From Candidatus Latescibacterota bacterium (GTDB lineage Bacteria > Latescibacterota > UBA2968 > UBA8231): 64,000 bases of DNA. Position numbers and translations under genes: made by a program. Shown piece after piece: positions 4,979 through 14,263 of the stretch (the first letter of the stretch is position 1; every line of letters begins with the position of its first letter). The notes under the pieces were generated by a model. It saw only the letters and a program-made list of their open reading frames with translations, did no database searches and was not told where the DNA came from. The stretch spans positions 896,001 to 960,000 of the forward strand of contig CBDAOB010000005.1 in assembly GCA_965197905.1 (NCBI GenBank), given 5' to 3'.

Positions 4979-6397
4979 GTGCCGATACGGCCGCCACGCA
5001 AGAACCTGGAAAGAGTGACTATCTACGATCTGAGATTCGAACCCGCAAACGGTGATCGCCAGCTGTTTCTAGACGACCACGGGATTCAACACATCGAGAA
5101 TCTCGTTCGCACGTTACATCCTCCCGCTAAGAAGGGAGCCGTCATCCGTCCCGTCCTCGGGATCGATCCCCCATGTCTCCAGATCCGTTCGGCGCCGATC
5201 TGGGATCCCGAAAAGGAACGGTTCCGCTTCTGGGGCGGTGGTTCGGTGCGAGAGAGCACGGACGGCCTCAACTGGAGTATCGTCGCACCGTATTCAGGTC
5301 CGGCTCTGGTGGTCTACGACGGCGATGATCCCGACCCCGGTCGGAGATACAAGGCATTCTCGCCCGGCCATCGGGCGGTATCTCCAGACGGAGACACCTG
5401 GAGAACCCTTGATCTGCCTCCGGTTCCCAGCCAGGACGAGCACAACTTCTCCTTTGACCAGCGCAAGAGACTGTTCATCGCGACGGTCAAACATGCCGGG
5501 CCCCACGGGCGGTCTGTCTGGCTCTCCACCAGCGAGGATTTCGACACCTGGACCGAACCGGAGCTGATGTTCCATGCCGATGAGGTGGATCAGCTGATGG
5601 GTCGTGAGCGCATACAGGAGCGATTCGCCGATCCCAATCTCGCCTCTCCGTTTTTCGATTTTCCACCGTTCTACAACGTCGACATCTACAACATGTCGGT
5701 CTTTCGCTATGAGAGTGTCTACCTCGGTTTTCCGATGATGTATTGCCAGACCGGCAAGGTAAGCGGAAGCTGGCCCGACTTCGCCAACTGGGAGCTCTCG
5801 GAGGAGATGCGATCCATATTCCAGCGCGACGGGGACTGGACCGGTTTTCATCCCGTCCAATTCGCCTGGAGTCGGGACCTTCGACAATGGGCGCGTCCCC
5901 CTGAAAGGAACCCGTTCATCGACCTCTCACTACTGGGAGGCGGCGACCTCGATCTCACTTCAGTGACCCCACCCTCATTTCCCCTGGTGCGCGACGATGA
6001 ACTCTGGCTCTACTACAACGGCGGCAGACAGTACGGTGGACCGGAACCGAAGCGGGGGGTGGACCAAGAGATGTGCGGTACCTGCCTGGCGGTGATCCGC
6101 CGGGACGGATTCGTCTCGCTGGACGCTGGAGCCGAAGAGGGCGTACTGATTACCAAGCCGTTTCGATTCGCGGGAGAGAGCTTGTTTCTCAATACACAGG
6201 CACCTGTCGGGGAGGTTCGGGCGGAACTGCTCGCAGCCGACGGCACGGCCGCATGCACCTCTGAACCGCTCTCGGGTGACCTCCCTAACGCAGCTTTTCA
6301 ATGGCGGCAGGGGGACCCGGTGACCGTCCGTGATCAGGAGGTCACGCTGCGTCTGGCAGCGCGGGATGCACAGCTGTTCTCCTACTGGATCGAATAG
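4979..6397 (+). CDS. GH32/GH43-like five-bladed beta-propeller plus beta-sandwich protein (paralog 1)
   Basis: RQLFLDD, Asp-box-like S-x-D-G-x-x-W repeats, RRDGFVSLDAG, terminal LFSYW. Clearly homologous to 50443-51987. Confidence 0.65.
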   Translation: MPIRPPRKNLERVTIYDLRFEPANGDRQLFLDDHGIQHIENLVRTLHPPAKKGAVIRPVLGIDPPCLQIRSAPIWDPEKERFRFWGGGSVRESTDGLNWSIVAPYSGPALVVYDGDDPDPGRRYKAFSPGHRAVSPDGDTWRTLDLPPVPSQDEHNFSFDQRKRLFIATVKHAGPHGRSVWLSTSEDFDTWTEPELMFHADEVDQLMGRERIQERFADPNLASPFFDFPPFYNVDIYNMSVFRYESVYLGFPMMYCQTGKVSGSWPDFANWELSEEMRSIFQRDGDWTGFHPVQFAWSRDLRQWARPPERNPFIDLSLLGGGDLDLTSVTPPSFPLVRDDELWLYYNGGRQYGGPEPKRGVDQEMCGTCLAVIRRDGFVSLDAGAEEGVLITKPFRFAGESLFLNTQAPVGEVRAELLAADGTAACTSEPLSGDLPNAAFQWRQGDPVTVRDQEVTLRLAARDAQLFSYWIE

Positions 6398-7519: not shown

Positions 7520-7586
7520 CGCCTCGACCCGTAGAATCCTGCTGGTGCTAGATTACTCCTTGTAATAGCTCGAGCAGGGGAATGTA

Positions 7587-10500
7587 TCAAGCATTCGGAG
7601 GCAGTCCAACAAATTGACGACTGTAGGCATCCAGCAGGGGATCGGACTCGCGTTTGTCGGCGGCGCGTGCGAAGACGACTCCGGGGCAGTTCGCCCGCCG
7701 TGCTCGCGGCAGCAGACCGTAGCCGGAAGGCAGCGCTCGTTCACCCGTTCGCTCCAACTCAAACATCTCTCCCATCACCTCGGCAATGCCCCGTCGAGCT
7801 CCCACGACTCGGGCAAACGCCTCGTGCGGTTCTAACCCCTGCCGCCAACCGTGTCGCGTGGGCACGGTCCTGCCATCGATGTCGGTCGTCGCGATATTCG
7901 GGCCGATCAGCTGGAGGAGCTGCATCGTGTTACCCCTCGCTCCGCTCTTGCAAAGCAGGTTCAGCGGCCCGAATTCGTCGTCGTCGATCTCGTCGCATCT
8001 CGCCAACCAATGCAACGCTTCATCGGTGTAGGACTCCCATTGGTCCCGGTCGTCCTCCTCCGGTGGCGAGGGAAGATCCAGGCTAGTGCCGACGAATGGA
8101 TTCATCGACAGACCAAGGGTTTTGGCTTCTTCGAACCCGCGACGCATCAGGCGTTCGGAGGTCGTAAGGGCCTCCTCCACACCTTTGCGCTCGACCATCT
8201 CGCGCAGCGCATCGACAAGCGGCCGGCGTGTGATGAAGGCGGCACCCTTCTCGATTTTCATGCCGGGGAGTTTTTCGATCTCAGCATGGCCTTCCGGTGT
8301 CATACTCAAGCTGGCCAGTCCCACAACGGCATCCATTCGCGGATCCAGGGAGCTGATCAATTCGGGATTCCGCTCAACCACGGCGCGGATAGATAAGCGC
8401 TGCTCCGCCTCGAGCTGCCCAGCTTTGGTGATCGGGAGAAAAACCGCCATCTGGTCGCCGTCGAAATCCGCGTTCATCAACTCGCAAGCAAGCGGAGGTA
8501 GGCGCAGCGCCCGTCCCGGACACCGAACCGGTCGGAAAGCGAGAAAAGAGGAAATAGGGGAAAGCACCCATCCTGTGTAGACAGTCACCCACGAACCCGC
8601 CAGGAGTTGGTCGAGGGATTCTTCCAGCTCGGGCGTCGGCCTGGTGGGTGCGGTCGAGGGTACGGTTTCGCGAGCGAGCAGCGGGCCGAACAGGGTCCAG
8701 CAGATCTCTTCGGGAAGGCCGATCTGATCGTAGTGCAGTTCAGGCCCAGGGGTGGTAACAGTTCGTCCACTGAACAAGACACTGGCGTTGGGAAGCAAAT
8801 CCTTGGGTTTGACAACCGCATTCAAATAGGCGCCGAGCATCTCTTCGAGGTGTGTCTGCGCACTTTCTATCAAGGCCTTTGGGGCGCTGCTGTCGACCAT
8901 CTGTTGAAGGCGAGAATTGGCCGACTCCAGCTCGGCGTATTCCGGCAGCTCCTCAAGTTGCCCGACCCTCTTCAAACGGTGTTGGCGGAACCATGGGTGA
9001 GGAACGGGAAGCGCAAACTGCAAGCAGGGATTCGGTGGCGACTGGAAGGTCAACCGCAGACATTCCTGTTCGAGGGCAACCTGGATTCCCGCGATCTCCA
9101 GGCGCTGGACGAGTCTTGTAAACGACGGTGCAGGCGGACCTGCCTGTCGCAGCTCTCCCTTGCCGACCTTTTCCGCCAGCGTCTCGGATCCGTCGCGCTC
9201 CGCGGCGCAGGTGTTGAAGAGCTCAGACGCGGTCTCGAGCGCGCCGATGTTCGCCAGCATACCATATTCGTTGGCGCCAACCGTTTGCGGCCGGCCATCT
9301 CCAACCGAGGCATGTATCTTGCCGCGCACATCGTGGATCGTGCGGCCCCAGTAGACCCATCCCGCGGTGCTTGGGCGTTGTAGTCTTTTACCGTTAACGG
9401 TAAGGGTTTCCATGCCGTCGCCGGATATTCCCGCTGTCGTCATTCGCTTGCGGAGCTCCTTCTCGCTCGGCGCCTGAAAAGGAGGCACGATCGCCGGTTT
9501 GCTTTCGGTCTTCGCGATACGACCCATCAACGCTTCCCGTACGACCCCAAAATTCATGCGGGATACCAGGCCGCAGACGCTGTAGATCAGGTCGATGGGG
9601 ACCCCGTTCAGGTGCGGCATCTCTACGTCCGGGAGGATGCACGAGACCACACCCTTCGATCCGTGCCGGTTGGAAATCTTGTCACCTACTTCGATTGGGT
9701 GAGGATCCTGGAAACGGGAAGCCGCCGATTCGCTGAGTACAATCGCATCTTCAAAGGTGTAGCCATCCCAGGAGATAAATGCGGTGAGCAGGTTCCGACC
9801 GCACCAGAATTCCGGGACATCAGGCTCCGCGCCGGTTTGGACCAGAGCCGGTTCTGGTTGCGCCTGGGGGGTCCACTGGCGCATCATATTGGCCCCCATC
9901 AGGAGCCGATTCCCGTCACTGTGTTCGAGAAACGGAATCGCGGAGGCGGACAAACCCAGGTTTGCCGCCGGCGTGTTCTCCACTATTTCCAGGCGACTGT
10001 CCCGAATCTCTGCCCCCTGTGCGATGGTGAGGATGCGTCCGACGTTGGGCCCTTCGGGGGTTTCGAAGGGGCAGGTGCGGCCGAAATGACCGGGGGTGAA
10101 GACCTTCTTGCGCTCAGGAATCGACACCCGGCGCAGATGTACTTGCCGAGATAACCAGTTTATTTCGACCAGTTCCTCACCAAGCTGCTGGAGGAATTCG
10201 CGAACCCAGTCGGTGATCGGTACCCATGCGGCAGCAAGGGTTTCCTCCCATTGCATCTCTTGCGGTGCGTCTCCCAGGCGCTGCTCAACAAAGTGGAACA
10301 ACTGCTCGCCCACACAGCGAATCTCAGCTCGATCGAGATCGTCCTCGGTGGCTTTCGGAGATACAACAAGCCACCGACCGTCCATCTCGAAAACCCCCTC
10401 GTCATTTGGCTCAGGCACATCGTCATGTTCCACCACGACCTCGCCGTCCTTTCCGCGCAGAACCACCTTGACCCGGCACCTATGATGTCCGGCTGCTTCG

Positions 10501-10610
10501 GTATGATATCCCACAAGTGGAATCCGCTCGCTCAGTAATTGCGGCAGCAGTTCCTGGATGAACCGATCCCACGAGGTTTTGTGCCAGGGTGCCCCGTAGC
10601 TCAACTTCAT
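7587..10610 (-). CDS. Miniaturised single-chain fusion of RNA polymerase beta and beta' core segments (1007 aa, two-barrel polymerase family)
   Basis: Collinear RpoB motifs: GRTCPFETPEGPNVG, IPFLEHSDGNRLLMGANMMRQ, WDGYTFEDAI, GDKISNRHGSKG, SRMNFG, KIHA. These are followed by RpoC motifs: PVPHPWF, FSGRTV...QIGLP, NADFDGDQMAV at 8454-8474, SGARG, GARRG. ATG at 10610 has a GGAGG RBS and overlaps the sigma stop codon. Confidence 0.93.
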   Translation of the reverse strand: MKLSYGAPWHKTSWDRFIQELLPQLLSERIPLVGYHTEAAGHHRCRVKVVLRGKDGEVVVEHDDVPEPNDEGVFEMDGRWLVVSPKATEDDLDRAEIRCVGEQLFHFVEQRLGDAPQEMQWEETLAAAWVPITDWVREFLQQLGEELVEINWLSRQVHLRRVSIPERKKVFTPGHFGRTCPFETPEGPNVGRILTIAQGAEIRDSRLEIVENTPAANLGLSASAIPFLEHSDGNRLLMGANMMRQWTPQAQPEPALVQTGAEPDVPEFWCGRNLLTAFISWDGYTFEDAIVLSESAASRFQDPHPIEVGDKISNRHGSKGVVSCILPDVEMPHLNGVPIDLIYSVCGLVSRMNFGVVREALMGRIAKTESKPAIVPPFQAPSEKELRKRMTTAGISGDGMETLTVNGKRLQRPSTAGWVYWGRTIHDVRGKIHASVGDGRPQTVGANEYGMLANIGALETASELFNTCAAERDGSETLAEKVGKGELRQAGPPAPSFTRLVQRLEIAGIQVALEQECLRLTFQSPPNPCLQFALPVPHPWFRQHRLKRVGQLEELPEYAELESANSRLQQMVDSSAPKALIESAQTHLEEMLGAYLNAVVKPKDLLPNASVLFSGRTVTTPGPELHYDQIGLPEEICWTLFGPLLARETVPSTAPTRPTPELEESLDQLLAGSWVTVYTGWVLSPISSFLAFRPVRCPGRALRLPPLACELMNADFDGDQMAVFLPITKAGQLEAEQRLSIRAVVERNPELISSLDPRMDAVVGLASLSMTPEGHAEIEKLPGMKIEKGAAFITRRPLVDALREMVERKGVEEALTTSERLMRRGFEEAKTLGLSMNPFVGTSLDLPSPPEEDDRDQWESYTDEALHWLARCDEIDDDEFGPLNLLCKSGARGNTMQLLQLIGPNIATTDIDGRTVPTRHGWRQGLEPHEAFARVVGARRGIAEVMGEMFELERTGERALPSGYGLLPRARRANCPGVVFARAADKRESDPLLDAYSRQFVGLPPNA

Positions 10611-11203
10611 TCGAATTCCTCCCAGTCTATGCCGAGGGCTTTCCACCTTCTGCCGATCTCCCTGCGGCCGTAATGTAAGCGCGATTTTACGGTTCCCGGA
10701 GGTATGCCCAGTTCCTGGGCGACCTCCTTCACCTCCATCTGGGCGTCGTAGATCAAACGCATCACCTCTCGTTTGTCTTCCGGCAGGTCGTCCACGAGAT
10801 CCTGCAATCTATCGCGTACCTCCTTTCGTTCGAGCAGCGTGTCCGCACCAAGCGCAGCCGCATCGACCAACCACACCGGGACGTCGCTTTCATCCTCTTC
10901 AAGATCGAGCCCGGAAGCTTCCAGCGGCTGCTGGCGGCGGCGACGCACGGTGCGGATATGGTTGAGGGCCAGATTGGTGGCTATGCGGTAGAGCCACGAC
11001 AGCAACGATGAACCGCTCCACTGCGCGGAGTGCGACCAGACCCGTAGAAACAACTCCTGGAGCAGGTCTTCGGCCGCACCTCTGTCGCGCACCATCCGTT
11101 GCAGATGGCGAACTAGATCGGTGGAGTATCGTTGATGGAGCTCTTCGAACGCCTTTTCGTCCCGGCTTCGAATGCGCACCATGAGGTCATGGTCAGTGTC
11201 CAA
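10607..11203 (-). CDS. ECF (sigma-70 group 4) RNA polymerase sigma factor
   Basis: Region 2: AAEDLLQELFLRVW...SWLYRIATNLALNH. Region 4: LPEDKREV...EVAQELGIPPGTVKSRLHYGR. TTG start with GGGAGG RBS. Confidence 0.95.
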   Translation of the reverse strand: MDTDHDLMVRIRSRDEKAFEELHQRYSTDLVRHLQRMVRDRGAAEDLLQELFLRVWSHSAQWSGSSLLSWLYRIATNLALNHIRTVRRRRQQPLEASGLDLEEDESDVPVWLVDAAALGADTLLERKEVRDRLQDLVDDLPEDKREVMRLIYDAQMEVKEVAQELGIPPGTVKSRLHYGRREIGRRWKALGIDWEEFE

Positions 11204-11222
11204 ACAACCTCCCTACTGCTCA

Positions 11223-11249
11223 TGACACCGAATGAAACGGAGGGGTTCA
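11223..11249 (-). promoter_or_regulatory. Putative ECF-type (autoregulatory) promoter TGAACC-N16-TGTCA for the sigma / mini-RNAP operon
   Basis: Minus strand reads TGAACC cctccgtttcattcgg TGTCA about 20 nt upstream of the sigma start. This fits the general ECF pattern of AAC in -35 and GTC/CGT in -10. Confidence 0.55.
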
Positions 11250-11274
11250 AAGAAAAATATAGTATGGTGGGTTG

Positions 11275-11302
11275 TTGACTCTCTGCCTGGCTGCAATATA
11301 TT
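11275..11302 (+). promoter_or_regulatory. Putative sigma-70 promoter for trmB-ilvE
   Basis: TTGACT (11275-11280), 16-nt spacer, TATATT (11297-11302) in an AT-rich intergenic patch. Confidence 0.5.
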
Positions 11303-11323
11303 GACTACTATAGGTAGTTAATA
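11299..11323. promoter_or_regulatory. Inverted-repeat operator TATTGACTAC-N5-GTAGTTAATA, likely bound by the adjacent TrmB-family regulator
   Basis: 10-bp arms with one mismatch, overlapping the predicted -10 and start region of the regulator gene. Confidence 0.55.
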
Positions 11324-11349
11324 ATCAGGCAAAGGAACTGCTCATTCAG

Positions 11350-12136
11350 TTGGGCTTGAGCGAATACGAAGCCGGAGCCTATCTCTCCCTCCTGAGCTGC
11401 CAACCAGCAACGGCATACGAACTTGCCAAGGTATCCGGCATCCCGAGCTCGAAAATCTATGAAACAGCCAACCGCCTGGTAGACAAGAAGCTTATCGAGC
11501 CGGTTACCGCCGATAGTGGACGCGGGCAACGCTACATCGCCGTGGGGGCCGAGGACTTTATCTCCATCAAACGCGAGGAGGTTGCGCGCCAGACAAACGT
11601 GCTTGAGCCTCTCCTGAAGGCCGCCAGCAACGGTATGGAAGCGGACTTTATCTGGCAACTGGACGGGGCCGACGGGCTCGAGGATAAAACGCGCCCAATT
11701 GATTCGGGAGGCAGAAGGAACCGTGTTGGCCTCCCTGTGGCAAGCCGAGTTCGATGCCTATGACGACGATCTGCAAGCCGCCGAGCGGTGGGGTGTCGGT
11801 CTCGCCCTGGTGCACTACGGCGCGCCCGCCAGGCGCTTGGGGGCAACCTTTCACCACCCCGTGGAAGAGACGATCCGGCAGGAACGGGGCGGGCGCGGCC
11901 TTACCCTCGTTGTCGATCAACGCTGCGTGGTCATCGCCACTTACTTCGACGACGGTCGCGTGGAAGGGGCCTGGAGCCGAAATCGGGCGTTTGTCTTTGT
12001 TGCCGAAGACTGCGTCCGGCACGACGTCTATATCACCAAGGTTACGGCAACCATGGATGACGATCTCAAGCGCAACTTCGGGGCGGACTACGAAAAACTG
12101 CGTGATGTGTTTCAAGCGGTGGAGCGGGAGTCGTGA
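11350..12136 (+). CDS. TrmB-family transcriptional regulator, split by a +1 frameshift near 11694-11696 (probable sequencing error)
   Basis: N-terminal LGLSEYEAGAYLSLL...TAYELAKVSGIPSSKIYE wHTH. The effector-binding half (LTLVVD...HDVY) is in the next frame. Removing one C from gcgccc gives ...KTRQLIREAE. Confidence 0.8.
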
Positions 12137-13029
12137 AAGCGTGCTGGCTGAACGGATCGCTCGTCGATCCGAATTTAGCCTCGGTTTCGGTCTTCGATCA
12201 TGGGCTGCTTTATGGTGACGGCGTTTTCGAGGGGATCCGCTTCTACGACAAGGTCCCGTTCCGTCTCGATGCACACCTTCAACGAGTCGAGCGCTCGGCC
12301 CGGGCGATCGCCCTCGAGATACGGTATTCGCGGACCGAGCTGGCCAGCGCCGTAGGCGAGACGGTCGCCGCCGCCGGCGAACAAGGTGGCTACATACGAT
12401 TGGTGGCGACCCGGGGTATCGGAACTCTGGGTGTCGATCCGCGATCCTGCCGGGTCGGAACGGTGTTCATTCTTGCCGACAAGCTCGAGTTGGCTGACCA
12501 GGCGGTGTATCGAAACGGAGCACGGGTCATTCTTTCAGCCACGCGCAGGCTCGGCGCCGACGAAATCGATCCGCGCATCAAATCGCTGAACTATCTGAAC
12601 CAGATCCTGGCGCGCATCGAAGCCAACCATGCAGGTGCGGACGAGGCCATCATGCTCAATCGTGCCGGGATGGTAGTGGAAGGTACAGCGGACAACGTGT
12701 TTGTCGTCGCCAACAACCGGCTGCTGACGCCGCCACTGTCAGACGGGGCACTGGATGGAATCACTCGTCAGGTGGTGTTCGAGCTCGCCGACAGACTTGC
12801 GATCCCCTGTGGGGAGGGGAGTCTCGCCCCCTACGACCTGTACAACGCGGATGAGTGTTTCCTCACCGGTACCGGAGCCGAGCTCATTCCTGTGGCGGAG
12901 GTTCAGGGCCGGCGGATTGGTAGGGGAGAACACGCAATCTTCGAACGCTTGCGGTCCGCTTACAGTGAACTGATCAAAGAAGAGACAACCTTGGATCTTT
13001 GCTCGAAAGATGCTACTGTTCTGTGTTGA
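12133..13029 (+). CDS. ilvE: Branched-chain amino acid aminotransferase (class IV PLP)
   Basis: DHGLLYGDGVFEGIR, YIRLV, IKSLNYLN, EGTADN, LDGITR, FLTGTGAE. GTGA overlap with the regulator gene. Confidence 0.9.
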   Translation: MKACWLNGSLVDPNLASVSVFDHGLLYGDGVFEGIRFYDKVPFRLDAHLQRVERSARAIALEIRYSRTELASAVGETVAAAGEQGGYIRLVATRGIGTLGVDPRSCRVGTVFILADKLELADQAVYRNGARVILSATRRLGADEIDPRIKSLNYLNQILARIEANHAGADEAIMLNRAGMVVEGTADNVFVVANNRLLTPPLSDGALDGITRQVVFELADRLAIPCGEGSLAPYDLYNADECFLTGTGAELIPVAEVQGRRIGRGEHAIFERLRSAYSELIKEETTLDLCSKDATVLC

Positions 13030-13072
13030 TTCGCGAACAGCCGTGTCCTTAGAGAACAGGTCCAGCGTCATA

Positions 13073-14263
13073 TTGATTCGTACCCTCGCCGTCATCGTTC
13101 TACTCCTCGCGGCCCACCGCACGGCATACGCCGTCGAGCCGCCCCGAGAGCCCCGACACGAATTCACCTTCGTCGTTCTCGGCGACAGCCAGTTTCATCT
13201 TCCGAACACCTTCAACAGGCTGATCGACGAGATCGTACATCTCTATCCCTCGTTCGTCATTCAGGTGGGGGATATGATCAGCGGTTACGTCGAAGATCTG
13301 GACGAATTTCGCGCCCAATGGAAGCGGTTTCACGCCCAGATCGCTCCTCTCGGCGAGATTCCGTTCTACCCGGTTCCCGGGAATCATGACGTGCTCGATG
13401 CCAGTCACAAACCCGGCGGCGAAAAGATCTACAAAGAGGTCTGGGGCGACACCTACTACTCCTTCGATTATCGCAACGCGCATTTCATCATCTTGAACAC
13501 CGACGATCGCGATGGAAGCGAGATCACCGGGGAGCAACTGAATTGGTTAAAGAGAGATCTTGGAGGTGCGCGCAAGCAGGATCACATATTCGTCTTTTTC
13601 CACCGTCCGATCTATTCGCTCAAGAACGAGGAAGAGCTGCACAAGCTGTTTGTGGAACACGGGGTGATCGCTGTGATCTACGGACACAGGCATCACTTGC
13701 ACTACCGGGAGCGAGATGGCATTCCATACATGATGACGATGAGCGCGACGAAACTGAGTACCCCGTTTCCCCTCGAAGCAGGAAATATGCATCACATGTT
13801 GCTGGTTACCGTGCGCGACAACACCTTTCGCATTGCTGTCGTTAAGGCCGGATCGGTGCTGCCGCCCGACATCGTTACTCCCAAGGACAACAGCCGGCTA
13901 TACAATCTCCATCGGCGATTTTTCGAGGAGGAGGAAATCGCGTTCGAGAAGCTCCAACGAAAGGACGATGGCTATGAGGTCGTCCTTCGGGTGAACAACC
14001 TGTCCGATCAAGACCTGCTGGCATTCTTCGAATGGCAACTTCCAAATGCCCGCTGGTCCGTGGATCCATCAAAGGGGCGGCGGGTGTCATTGCCTGCTGG
14101 AACAGAAGAGCACCCGATAACCTTTCTCCTGCGGCGCGACAATCCTCATACCCCCGAGGCGTTCCCCTCCTGCGTTGCCAGCTTGTTGTACCTCACCTCC
14201 GCCGGCGACGTCGTCAAACTCGAACATACCTTCGAAATCCTCGCCGAAGTCGAAGAGCGGTAG
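13073..14263 (+). CDS. Secreted calcineurin-like metallophosphoesterase with C-terminal beta-rich domain
   Basis: Signal peptide ending in AYA; motifs GDSQ, VGDM, PGNHD, FHRP, GHRH. Start is uncertain (13010-13073). Confidence 0.85.
   Translation: MIRTLAVIVLLLAAHRTAYAVEPPREPRHEFTFVVLGDSQFHLPNTFNRLIDEIVHLYPSFVIQVGDMISGYVEDLDEFRAQWKRFHAQIAPLGEIPFYPVPGNHDVLDASHKPGGEKIYKEVWGDTYYSFDYRNAHFIILNTDDRDGSEITGEQLNWLKRDLGGARKQDHIFVFFHRPIYSLKNEEELHKLFVEHGVIAVIYGHRHHLHYRERDGIPYMMTMSATKLSTPFPLEAGNMHHMLLVTVRDNTFRIAVVKAGSVLPPDIVTPKDNSRLYNLHRRFFEEEEIAFEKLQRKDDGYEVVLRVNNLSDQDLLAFFEWQLPNARWSVDPSKGRRVSLPAGTEEHPITFLLRRDNPHTPEAFPSCVASLLYLTSAGDVVKLEHTFEILAEVEER

Follow-up and report, generated by a model that had tools for sequence, protein, structure and literature searches.

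We analyzed a 64,000-nucleotide (nt) stretch of the genome of a Candidatus Latescibacterota bacterium (GenBank assembly GCA_965197905.1, contig CBDAOB010000005.1, positions 896,001 to 960,000 of the forward strand; hereafter, the window). Between its positions 7587 and 11203, two genes on the minus strand encode a sigma factor of the extracytoplasmic function (ECF) type and, directly downstream, a single-chain RNA polymerase (RNAP) of 1007 amino acids (aa), which we call the mini polymerase. A first-pass annotation, made from the sequence alone, had described the latter as an accessory, heavily streamlined paralog of cellular RNAP, and this description is supported by its homologs, by canonical rpoB and rpoC genes elsewhere in the genome, and by structural alignment. 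The locus is a real, conserved, and selected two-gene module that, judged by its sequence, appears to encode a catalytically equipped polymerase behind an autoregulatory promoter; that the mini polymerase polymerizes RNA, and that the sigma factor works with it, is what we infer.

Gene content of the locus and architecture of the mini polymerase

The open frame extends on the minus strand over 7587..10646 (1019 aa), and translation from the ATG at 10610 gives the 1007-aa protein, with a mass of ~110 kDa. As annotated at first sight, it is one intact open reading frame (ORF) with the NADFDGD and GDKxxxRHGxKG motifs where they had been placed (Table 1), and FETPEG (with the reported ETPEG), FED, and SRMN were also located in it, FED lying in the beta barrel. 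The suggested Pfam check for RNA_pol_Rpb2 and RNA_pol_Rpb1 domains returned, in order, Rpb2_3 (aa 149-202), Rpb2_6 (aa 304-434, E 1.4e-34), and Rpb1_2 (aa 688-737, E 3.2e-15), all above their cut-offs. The junction between the two genes reads GGGAGGAATTCGAATGA, in which GGGAGG, a ribosome-binding site (RBS) of the GGAGG type, is followed after 7 nt by ATGA, so the ATG of the polymerase does overlap the TGA of the sigma gene.

Table 1. Features of the sigma-polymerase locus, in coordinates of the window
Feature	Position	Strand	Content or basis
Single-chain mini RNA polymerase, 1007 aa plus stop	7587..10610	-	Trimmed beta fused to trimmed beta'
Beta-like half, aa 1-514	9069..10610	-	Beta1 domain (aa ~1-149), fork/FETPEG, flap-less double-psi beta-barrel, beta C-terminal clamp part
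Beta'-like half, aa 515-1007	7590..9068	-	Clamp core strands, clamp helices, switch 2, barrel, funnel/F-loop, bridge helix, short C-terminal clamp segment
Helical hairpin, aa 556-599, counterpart of the beta' clamp helices	8814..8945	-	Model helices H556-573 and H578-599
NADFDGD catalytic Mg-binding motif, aa 713-719	8454..8474	-	Sequence
GDKISNRHGSKG motif of the beta barrel (GDKxxxRHGxKG), aa 309-320	9651..9686	-	Sequence
Bridge helix, aa 928-955	7746..7829	-	Model helix H928-955
ECF-type sigma gene, 198 aa, TTG start, GGGAGG RBS	10607..11203	-	Pfam, NCBIfam
Putative ECF-type operon promoter: TGAAC (-35), 14 nt, CGGTGTC (-10)	11224..11249	-	Cross-locus motif; genome position G000:C5:907224-907249

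Contigs from public sequencing runs of two studies cover the locus, and one of 9.3 kb spans 8445-11400 with two differences, thus bridging both the beta/beta' junction and the sigma/polymerase overlap. The only break in this cover falls at the NADFDGD codons, where contigs from many organisms collide, and one of these runs may be the source sample of the window assembly itself. There is no sign of the chimeric assembly that was looked for as a refutation, and the conservation of the family, described below, is a stronger argument for this than the contigs.

The genome comprises 6.69 Mb in five contigs and contains the separate canonical genes that had been expected, with rpoB (1262-aa ORF) and rpoC (1362-aa ORF) adjacent to each other on the same contig, ~1.3 Mb from the mini polymerase. 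The mini polymerase is therefore an accessory copy and not the only polymerase of the cell. It stays far below the NCBIfam equivalog cut-offs for rpoB (TIGR02013, 166.7 versus 801.15) and rpoC (TIGR02386, 94.6 versus 963.5), and its scores against the models of fused rpoBC, PRK09603 and PRK14844, are 154-162 bits for cut-offs of 5372 and 4632.

An AlphaFold2 model built with the family alignment (predicted local distance difference test score, pLDDT, 94.3; predicted template modeling score, pTM, 0.91) was compared with ~48,000 representative chains using VIA-align. Residues 1-514 match a bacterial beta subunit (6j9e_C; Z 27.7, 510 residues aligned, root-mean-square deviation 2.6, 31% identity) and residues 514-1007 a beta' subunit (6edt_D; Z 17.2, 476 aligned, 26% identity), so the proposed division into about 510 aa of beta followed by about 490 aa of beta' holds, with the split at aa 514. 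The top Foldseek matches are likewise bacterial and plastid beta and beta' chains, and the fold scores for phage single-chain enzymes and QDE-1 lie at Z 6-13.

The alignments also indicate which parts of the canonical enzyme have been trimmed. Because the N-terminal domain (the first ~149 residues) aligns to the beta1 domain alone (3mlq_A, 4kbj_A), the beta2 lobe is taken to be absent, and the hhalign alignment to residues 443-1342 of E. coli beta is interrupted by large gaps at ~585-655, 703-785, 840-1055 (where insertion i9 and the flap, including its tip helix, would be), and 1123-1177. On the beta' side, aa 556-959 align with E. coli residues 267-798. The clamp helices (aa 556-599) correspond to residues 267-310, with the pattern N-RL-R-L---AP in both proteins, and switch 2, the catalytic barrel, the funnel/F-loop, and the bridge helix are kept as well. 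Past the clamp helices, the stretch that would hold the rudder is ~25 residues shorter than in E. coli beta'; only ~50 residues follow the bridge helix and the alignment ends at beta' 798, which indicates that the trigger loop, SI3, and the jaw are missing. According to these models, the beta lobe, flap, rudder, trigger loop, and jaw are gone from the mini polymerase, as is every lineage insertion. It retains what templated RNA synthesis needs, namely both double-psi barrels, with their invariant metal-binding and phosphate-binding residues, along with the fork, switch 2, F-loop, and bridge helix. In canonical enzymes, the trigger loop, rudder, and flap support fast, processive elongation.

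Distribution, selection, and pairing of the two genes

Relatives of ~1000 aa with both types of domain, which the first-pass annotation had proposed to search for, proved to be many and to share the same architecture. A word-indexed search gave 1023 matches among 8000 scored candidates, and the best 120 of them are all 1001-1068 aa long and 45-100% identical, with a query coverage of 99-100% and an identical Pfam set; where named, they are called "hypothetical protein" or after the Pfam domains they contain. Searching 1.84 billion representatives with a profile yielded 2793 proteins at E ≤1e-30, ordinary beta and beta' included. Among the best 150 of these (50% clustering level), 65 have 943-1101 aa, and the others are mostly fragments, apart from nine fused proteins that are larger (1613-2794 aa) and score far lower. 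In contigs from one genome per species, 20 of the 74 kept loci belong to the family (40-92% identity) and come from Latescibacterota, Poribacteria, Chloroflexota, Planctomycetota, Myxococcales, and Hydrogenedentota, while the other 54 are canonical rpoBC loci picked up through the NADFDGD pattern. Clusters of 1006-1026 aa that share this Pfam set are present in the ESM Atlas too, under the automatic names "hypothetical protein" or "DNA-directed RNA polymerase family protein"; few of their members have a recorded taxon, and the phylum recorded most often is Chloroflexota. For 10 homologs, a cluster look-up returned neither names nor accessions. Most carriers that we met are metagenome-assembled genomes of uncultured bacteria, and this may explain why we found no description of the family.

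In an alignment of 105 sequences, residues G309, D310, K311, R315, and G317 of the beta barrel and G718 and D719 of the beta' barrel are invariant, H316, K319, and G320 of the former and A714, D715, F716, and D717 of the latter are conserved in at least 90%, and the clamp-helix residues N565 and P577 are conserved too. The dN/dS ratio is 0.14-0.21 over six close pairs (four of the polymerase, two of sigma), well under the value near 1 that had been set as evidence against the system, and both genes are under purifying selection.

Within the phylum, the mini polymerase was found in 53 of 151 sampled genomes (19 of the 52 of high quality), nearly always as a single copy with no internal stops, and its presence by genus is uneven (e.g., 20/20, 14/22, 4/9, and 0/15). 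One genome of the same genus as the window lacks, at a contiguous syntenic site, a 5.6-kb segment equivalent to window positions 7546-13128, which holds the polymerase, sigma, a TrmB-like gene, and a class-IV aminotransferase. Such patchy spread could be expected from frequent horizontal transfer, but this is unsupported by a quick maximum-likelihood tree of 21 sequences (the partial loci L022 and L029 and most in-phylum loci left out), which groups largely by phylum (Latescibacterota 99, Poribacteria 90, a Chloroflexota pair 99) and thus points to old inheritance with losses.

The surroundings are those of an ordinary chromosomal region, in agreement with the non-phage context first annotated. 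Across 21 loci, no neighbor of sigma besides the polymerase is conserved beyond close relatives; the 30 flanking proteins are unrelated chromosomal genes (oxidoreductases, aminotransferases, transporters, and regulators), and Pfam revealed no phage or mobility genes among them. No full-length member of the family was found in IMG/VR, where the best matches have 22-43% identity over partial spans; one locus with a compact relative that we inspected (L169) has two genes, of 902 and 1000 aa, with ~25% identity. In 50,697 phage records, none of 23 matches reaches at least 80% coverage, and in PHROGs, the mini polymerase matches generic families of the RNAP beta type only. Against the PADLOC defense models, the polymerase matches 0 families and sigma gives weak matches of the helix-turn-helix type (E ~4e-4). 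The operon is adjoined by a 472-aa ORF (4979-6397, plus strand) that has no Pfam match at E ≤1e-4 and is conserved in both same-genus genomes.

The sigma factor matches Sigma70_r2, Sigma70_r4_2, and Sigma70_ECF in Pfam and exceeds the cut-off of the NCBIfam sigma70-ECF superfamily (TIGR02937, 105.6 versus 42.9 bits), and none of the best 25 of its 87 NCBIfam matches reaches the cut-off of an equivalog or subfamily model. As in ECF (group 4) sigma factors, it has only two domains, sigma2 (aa ~4-91) and sigma4 (aa ~120-189). In an alignment of 33 orthologs (mean column identity 59%), the linker is conserved as an acidic run followed by P109, W111, D114, and P120, and most have an acidic-aromatic C-terminal tail (DWEE-like). 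Both domains are confident in an AlphaFold model, and linker residues 96-118 have a pLDDT of <50; a linker that is conserved yet predicted to be disordered alone would fit a segment that folds on a partner. A prediction of the complex between sigma and polymerase residues 206-1007 (the first 205 residues cut, no controls) gave a score of 0.00, below the mark of 0.32, and counts neither for nor against binding.

Conservation of the upstream ECF gene, named in the first-pass annotation as something to verify, was found both across and within phyla. All 19 cross-phylum loci that include upstream DNA have a sigma ortholog (E 2.6e-30 to 6.8e-116) immediately ahead of the polymerase gene and in the same orientation. 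For 20 in-phylum regions, from 19 genomes, it lies within 1.5 kb in 17 and farther off in the other three (20/20 in total), where a gene has been inserted that encodes, in two genomes, the half-transporter of an ATP-binding cassette (ABC) exporter and, in the third, an unrelated 381-aa protein. Over 24 loci, the sigma stop and the polymerase start overlap or are at most 25 nt apart in 13, 73-263 nt apart in seven, and 590-1938 nt apart in four, with a GGAGG-like site ahead of nearly all polymerase starts. When the 151 phylum genomes were searched with sigma at E ≤1e-30, the polymerase was present in 53, sigma in 51, and both in 50 of the 54 genomes holding either; in the sole sigma-only genome and in one polymerase-only genome, the gene lies at a contig edge. 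A natural sigma-polymerase fusion suspected in G147 (a 1248-aa frame) was ruled out, as the sigma stop lies 12 nt before the polymerase start, and no fused form of ~1200 aa occurs among the best 150 of the 2793 representatives. A cognate anti-sigma gene next to the ECF gene is typical of these factors, though not obligatory; comparison of the 21 loci, together with the Pfam scan of neighbors, showed none that is conserved.

The inserts are a feature of genus g19 (L120-L123). G084 has a 598-aa protein with ABC_membrane and ABC_tran domains between sigma and polymerase, G071 has at the same place an ORF of similar size (597 aa), G033 has the 381-aa protein, and G007 has a gap of ~590 nt. Upstream, on the same strand, are a 315-aa ORF (Pfam-blank in G084) and a ~343-aa ORF (with a DksA/TraR-type zinc finger in G084), and upstream ORFs matching these two sizes are found in all three genomes.

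The operon promoter and its reach

Upstream of sigma, TGAAC followed after 14-19 nt by GGTG, GTGT, or TGTC occurs in 12 of 14 diverse loci, and GGTGTC occurs in 13 of the 14, for which 20 shuffles gave at most 3-5. We could align 24 instances as tTGAAC(C/T)-N-(G/C)CGGTGTC, with identical spacing in 22 and a few GGCGTC or GGAGTC variants. As exceptions, the second copy in one genome has no match, and the motif is ~125 nt further upstream in three regions. In the window, the element ends ~20 nt before the TTG start of sigma and its GGGAGG site. These comparisons indicate that a predicted TGAAC-N14-CGGTGTC promoter heads the operon in all phyla sampled. Autoregulated ECF promoters usually have the form of the operon motif, and its GAAC-type -35 and CG(G)T-type -10 fit the ECF consensus.

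When the genome was scanned with a position weight matrix (PWM), the operon promoter was the top match (25.7, with the next at 20.8). Compared with reversed-sequence controls, the genome had 15 versus 3 sites above 18 and 3 versus 2 above 20, the lower ones being mostly intragenic, and the extra sites given by the strict pattern are few and all inside ORFs. Since only the operon promoter stands out, its own operon would be the sole target that can be assigned to sigma with confidence. A second conserved site in two g30 genomes was considered as a target promoter and rejected, as it lies inside a long ORF on the opposite strand.

Some other sequences in or near such regions were also observed. 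In G105:C1, an identical 25-nt promoter-like string occurs at six sites (e.g., 2131082, 5315065, and 5318194), probably as part of a repeated element rather than as a regulon. In 7 of 14 loci, the -35 element is immediately preceded by a T-rich run (TTTTTC-like; about 11250-11265 of the window, minus strand) that could be an UP-like element or the tail of an upstream terminator. A sigma-70-like match on the plus strand at 11275-11302 (TTGACT, 16 nt, TATATT; 10 of 12 positions) faces the TrmB-like gene at 11350 (plus strand), and one such match is what chance would give in a region like this.

Role of the pair and relation to known enzymes

The reading that we favor, at evenly balanced confidence, is that the sigma factor is the mini polymerase's own initiation factor, in a self-contained autoregulated operon of an ECF-type sigma and a single-chain RNAP. 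It is suggested by the clamp helices, a non-catalytic docking module kept in an otherwise stripped enzyme, by the family-specific motifs of sigma, and by the co-occurrence of the two genes almost without exception. In canonical RNAP, the beta' clamp helices are the main docking site of sigma region 2, and the flap-tip helix anchors region 4. Sigma would recognize TGAAC-N14-CGGTGTC, so that the operon would switch itself on, with the first rounds of transcription probably made by the host core enzyme. The mini polymerase, if catalytically active, would then initiate with this sigma too, whose region 2 would dock on the kept clamp helices and whose linker and C-terminal tail would stand in for the lost flap-tip contact. 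Such a pair would amount to an accessory transcription machine on which most regulators and inhibitors of the main RNAP do not act. With slightly less confidence, a little short of an even chance, we propose that members of at least five to seven phyla hold such a second self-contained machine, made of a single-chain RNAP, a dedicated ECF-type sigma, and a dedicated promoter class.

Several findings weigh against this reading. The flap and its tip helix are deleted, with ~8 residues in place of E. coli beta ~840-1055, so the mini polymerase lacks the anchor for sigma region 4, and the missing trigger loop and rudder might impair catalysis or the handling of the hybrid. The geometry of the promoter is that of an ordinary ECF promoter and can be explained by the host core without the mini polymerase. 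No regulon was detected, as the operon promoter alone exceeds the control level in the strict-pattern and PWM genome scans, which cover sites like the operon promoter and leave relaxed or different target promoters outside their reach; in the 151 phylum genomes, promoter-pattern counts are 0-14 per genome, with no visible difference between carriers and non-carriers. In genus g7, two single-contig genomes, G142 and G148, carry the polymerase and have no sigma ortholog within 8 kb or genome-wide at E ≤1e-30. The polymerase of G148 is full length (G148:C1, ~3661-3664 kb, L162 of the L161/L162 pair), and that of G142 lacks ~93 N-terminal residues (G142:C1, ~718-721 kb, L161), so these copies may represent decay or sigma-independent use. 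Finally, two sigma copies (G106 and G133) contain an in-frame TGA.

Much of this would be accounted for if sigma served the host core RNAP only, with the operon as its sole regulon, and the mini polymerase were a sigma-free effector, acting for example at nicks, single-stranded DNA, R-loops, or RNA templates, where certain single-chain enzymes with two barrels initiate. We regard this as unlikely, although it is the most probable of the alternatives. It would agree with the promoter geometry, the missing flap tip, and the intact but sigma-less polymerase of G148, and the predicted loss of the lobe, jaw, and flap would strip open the downstream-DNA and RNA-exit channels. The fold also resembles QDE-1 (Z 12.8) and P23-45 gp96 (Z 10.7), though far below its likeness to beta and beta'. 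What it leaves unexplained are the clamp helices in an otherwise minimal enzyme, the conserved linker and tail motifs of sigma, and the near-constant co-occurrence and adjacency of the genes across phyla. A dedicated initiation factor and a sigma used by the host core are not exclusive, as some use of the host core is needed to start the loop either way.

It is improbable that the mini polymerase is active but makes short RNAs (primers, abortive products, or signaling oligonucleotides) from one fixed position, for instance its own promoter. The absent trigger loop, rudder, and flap and the single strong promoter in the genome would suit such a synthase, but no receptor, effector, or replication genes are conserved beside the pair, and YonO, a single-chain enzyme without a trigger loop, is reportedly still processive. 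More improbable still is a non-catalytic RNAP mimic that titrates sigma, as an anti-sigma-like sink giving negative feedback, or other RNAP-binding factors; no anti-sigma gene is conserved beside sigma and the clamp helices are kept, but across phyla there is little or no variation in the catalytic residues of the two barrels, switch 2, and the bridge helix, none of which a mere binding decoy would need. A polymerase of a phage, plasmid, or mobile element, an assembly artifact, or a decaying pseudogene is hardly credible, since the patchy spread within genera and the same-genus genome without the 5.6-kb segment are outweighed by chromosomal metabolic neighbors, viral collections (IMG/VR and phage records) with no full-length member, a tree ordered by phylum, intact ORFs, a dN/dS of 0.14-0.21, and contigs that bridge the junctions.

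If the sigma factor is indeed the initiation factor of the mini polymerase, the pair would be an exception to the rule that bacteria have one RNAP whose specificity is changed by sigma swapping alone, as it would add a second selected polymerase with its own sigma. It would also be the smallest sigma-dependent RNAP of the multisubunit type known, working without a trigger loop, flap, rudder, lobe, or jaw, and would define a minimal core for catalysis and sigma docking. The family can be seen as a natural deletion experiment, in which the flap, rudder, trigger loop, lobe, and jaw would be dispensable and the barrels, switch 2, bridge helix, and clamp helices indispensable, a division relevant to the evolution of RNAP from a two-barrel core. 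How a sigma factor is positioned without the flap tip becomes testable in this family. As many binding sites for regulators and inhibitors are missing, the mini polymerase might keep running when the main enzyme is blocked, and a set of polymerase, sigma, and promoter of ~3.6 kb would be an attractive transcription module separate from the host.

The pair is a conserved, uncharacterized system of a known kind, a two-barrel RNAP with a sigma factor. Its closest relatives in design are canonical bacterial RNAP and ECF sigma factors. The whole chain aligns to beta and beta', with the same catalytic motifs, switch 2, bridge helix, and clamp helices, and sigma has the canonical sigma2 and sigma4 layout and a bipartite promoter ahead of its own gene, but the polymerase is one chain of 1007 aa in place of ~2700 aa in two chains, and we noticed no alpha or omega gene adjacent to it. 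The beta::beta' fusions of Helicobacter and Wolbachia (PRK09603 and PRK14844) have the same beta-then-beta' order but, at ~2800-2900 aa, retain every domain and serve as the cell's sole RNAP. In concept, the nearest parallel by description is Orf6 of the yeast killer plasmid pGKL2, an Rpb2::Rpb1 fusion of 982 aa in which about half of each subunit is deleted (PMC2919709). Like the mini polymerase, it is a ~1000-aa fusion of the two largest subunits, but it belongs to a eukaryotic cytoplasmic linear plasmid, has eukaryotic-type subunits, and has no sigma, whereas the mini polymerase is chromosomal, bacterial in type, and paired with sigma.

YonO of SPbeta, P23-45 gp96, crAss-like gp66, and QDE-1 are likewise single chains with two barrels and no trigger loop. 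They share little with beta and beta' beyond the motifs, are encoded by phages or eukaryotes, and are not known to have a sigma partner. In fold, the mini polymerase is nearer to beta (Z 27.7) and beta' (Z 17.2) than to QDE-1 (12.8), gp96 (10.7), or crAss gp66 (6.4), YonO being compared by description only; as a group, gp96, gp62, and crAss gp66 are weak matches (Z 6-11, versus 17-28 for beta and beta'). The non-virion RNAPs (nvRNAP) of jumbo phages and the Caudovirales lineage of PMC7481178 are also trimmed beta-like and beta'-like enzymes, some with a promoter-specificity subunit of their own. Reduced multisubunit RNAPs of phages differ in that they are viral, are encoded by separate genes (902 and 1000 aa in L169), and have 22-28% identity to the mini polymerase family.

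The first-pass annotation had not recognized the protein as a characterized family, and indeed no curated family of NCBIfam or PADLOC claims it. Full-text literature searches likewise gave no published description, nor did passages of PMC2919709, PMC7824862, PMC7826278, and PMC7481178, with subscription-only work and supplements outside this scope; in the part of PMC7826278 covered, Rpb, RpoB, and RpoC have 0 occurrences.

A third RNAP-like gene is present in the same genome. It is a 1917-aa ORF (G000:C3:765313-771066, plus strand, equal to L084:7314-13067) in which the alpha-type domains RNA_pol_L and RNA_pol_A_bac precede Rpb2_3/6/7 and Rpb1_2/3/4/5; it looks like a single-chain alpha-beta-beta' fusion and is 35-45% identical to the canonical subunits. 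A Pfam scan found no sigma among its seven adjacent ORFs (of those of at least 150 aa). The BLAST identity of the mini polymerase to this fusion is similar to that to canonical beta and beta', and the first 500 aa of the fusion are matched in 4 of the 151 phylum genomes, in frames of 990-1999 aa. Metagenomes contain further uncharacterized clusters of fused beta-beta' proteins, of 1221-1787 aa in the ESM Atlas, besides the nine library representatives of 1613-2794 aa, and reduced or fused RNAPs thus seem more varied than the two forms usually cited.

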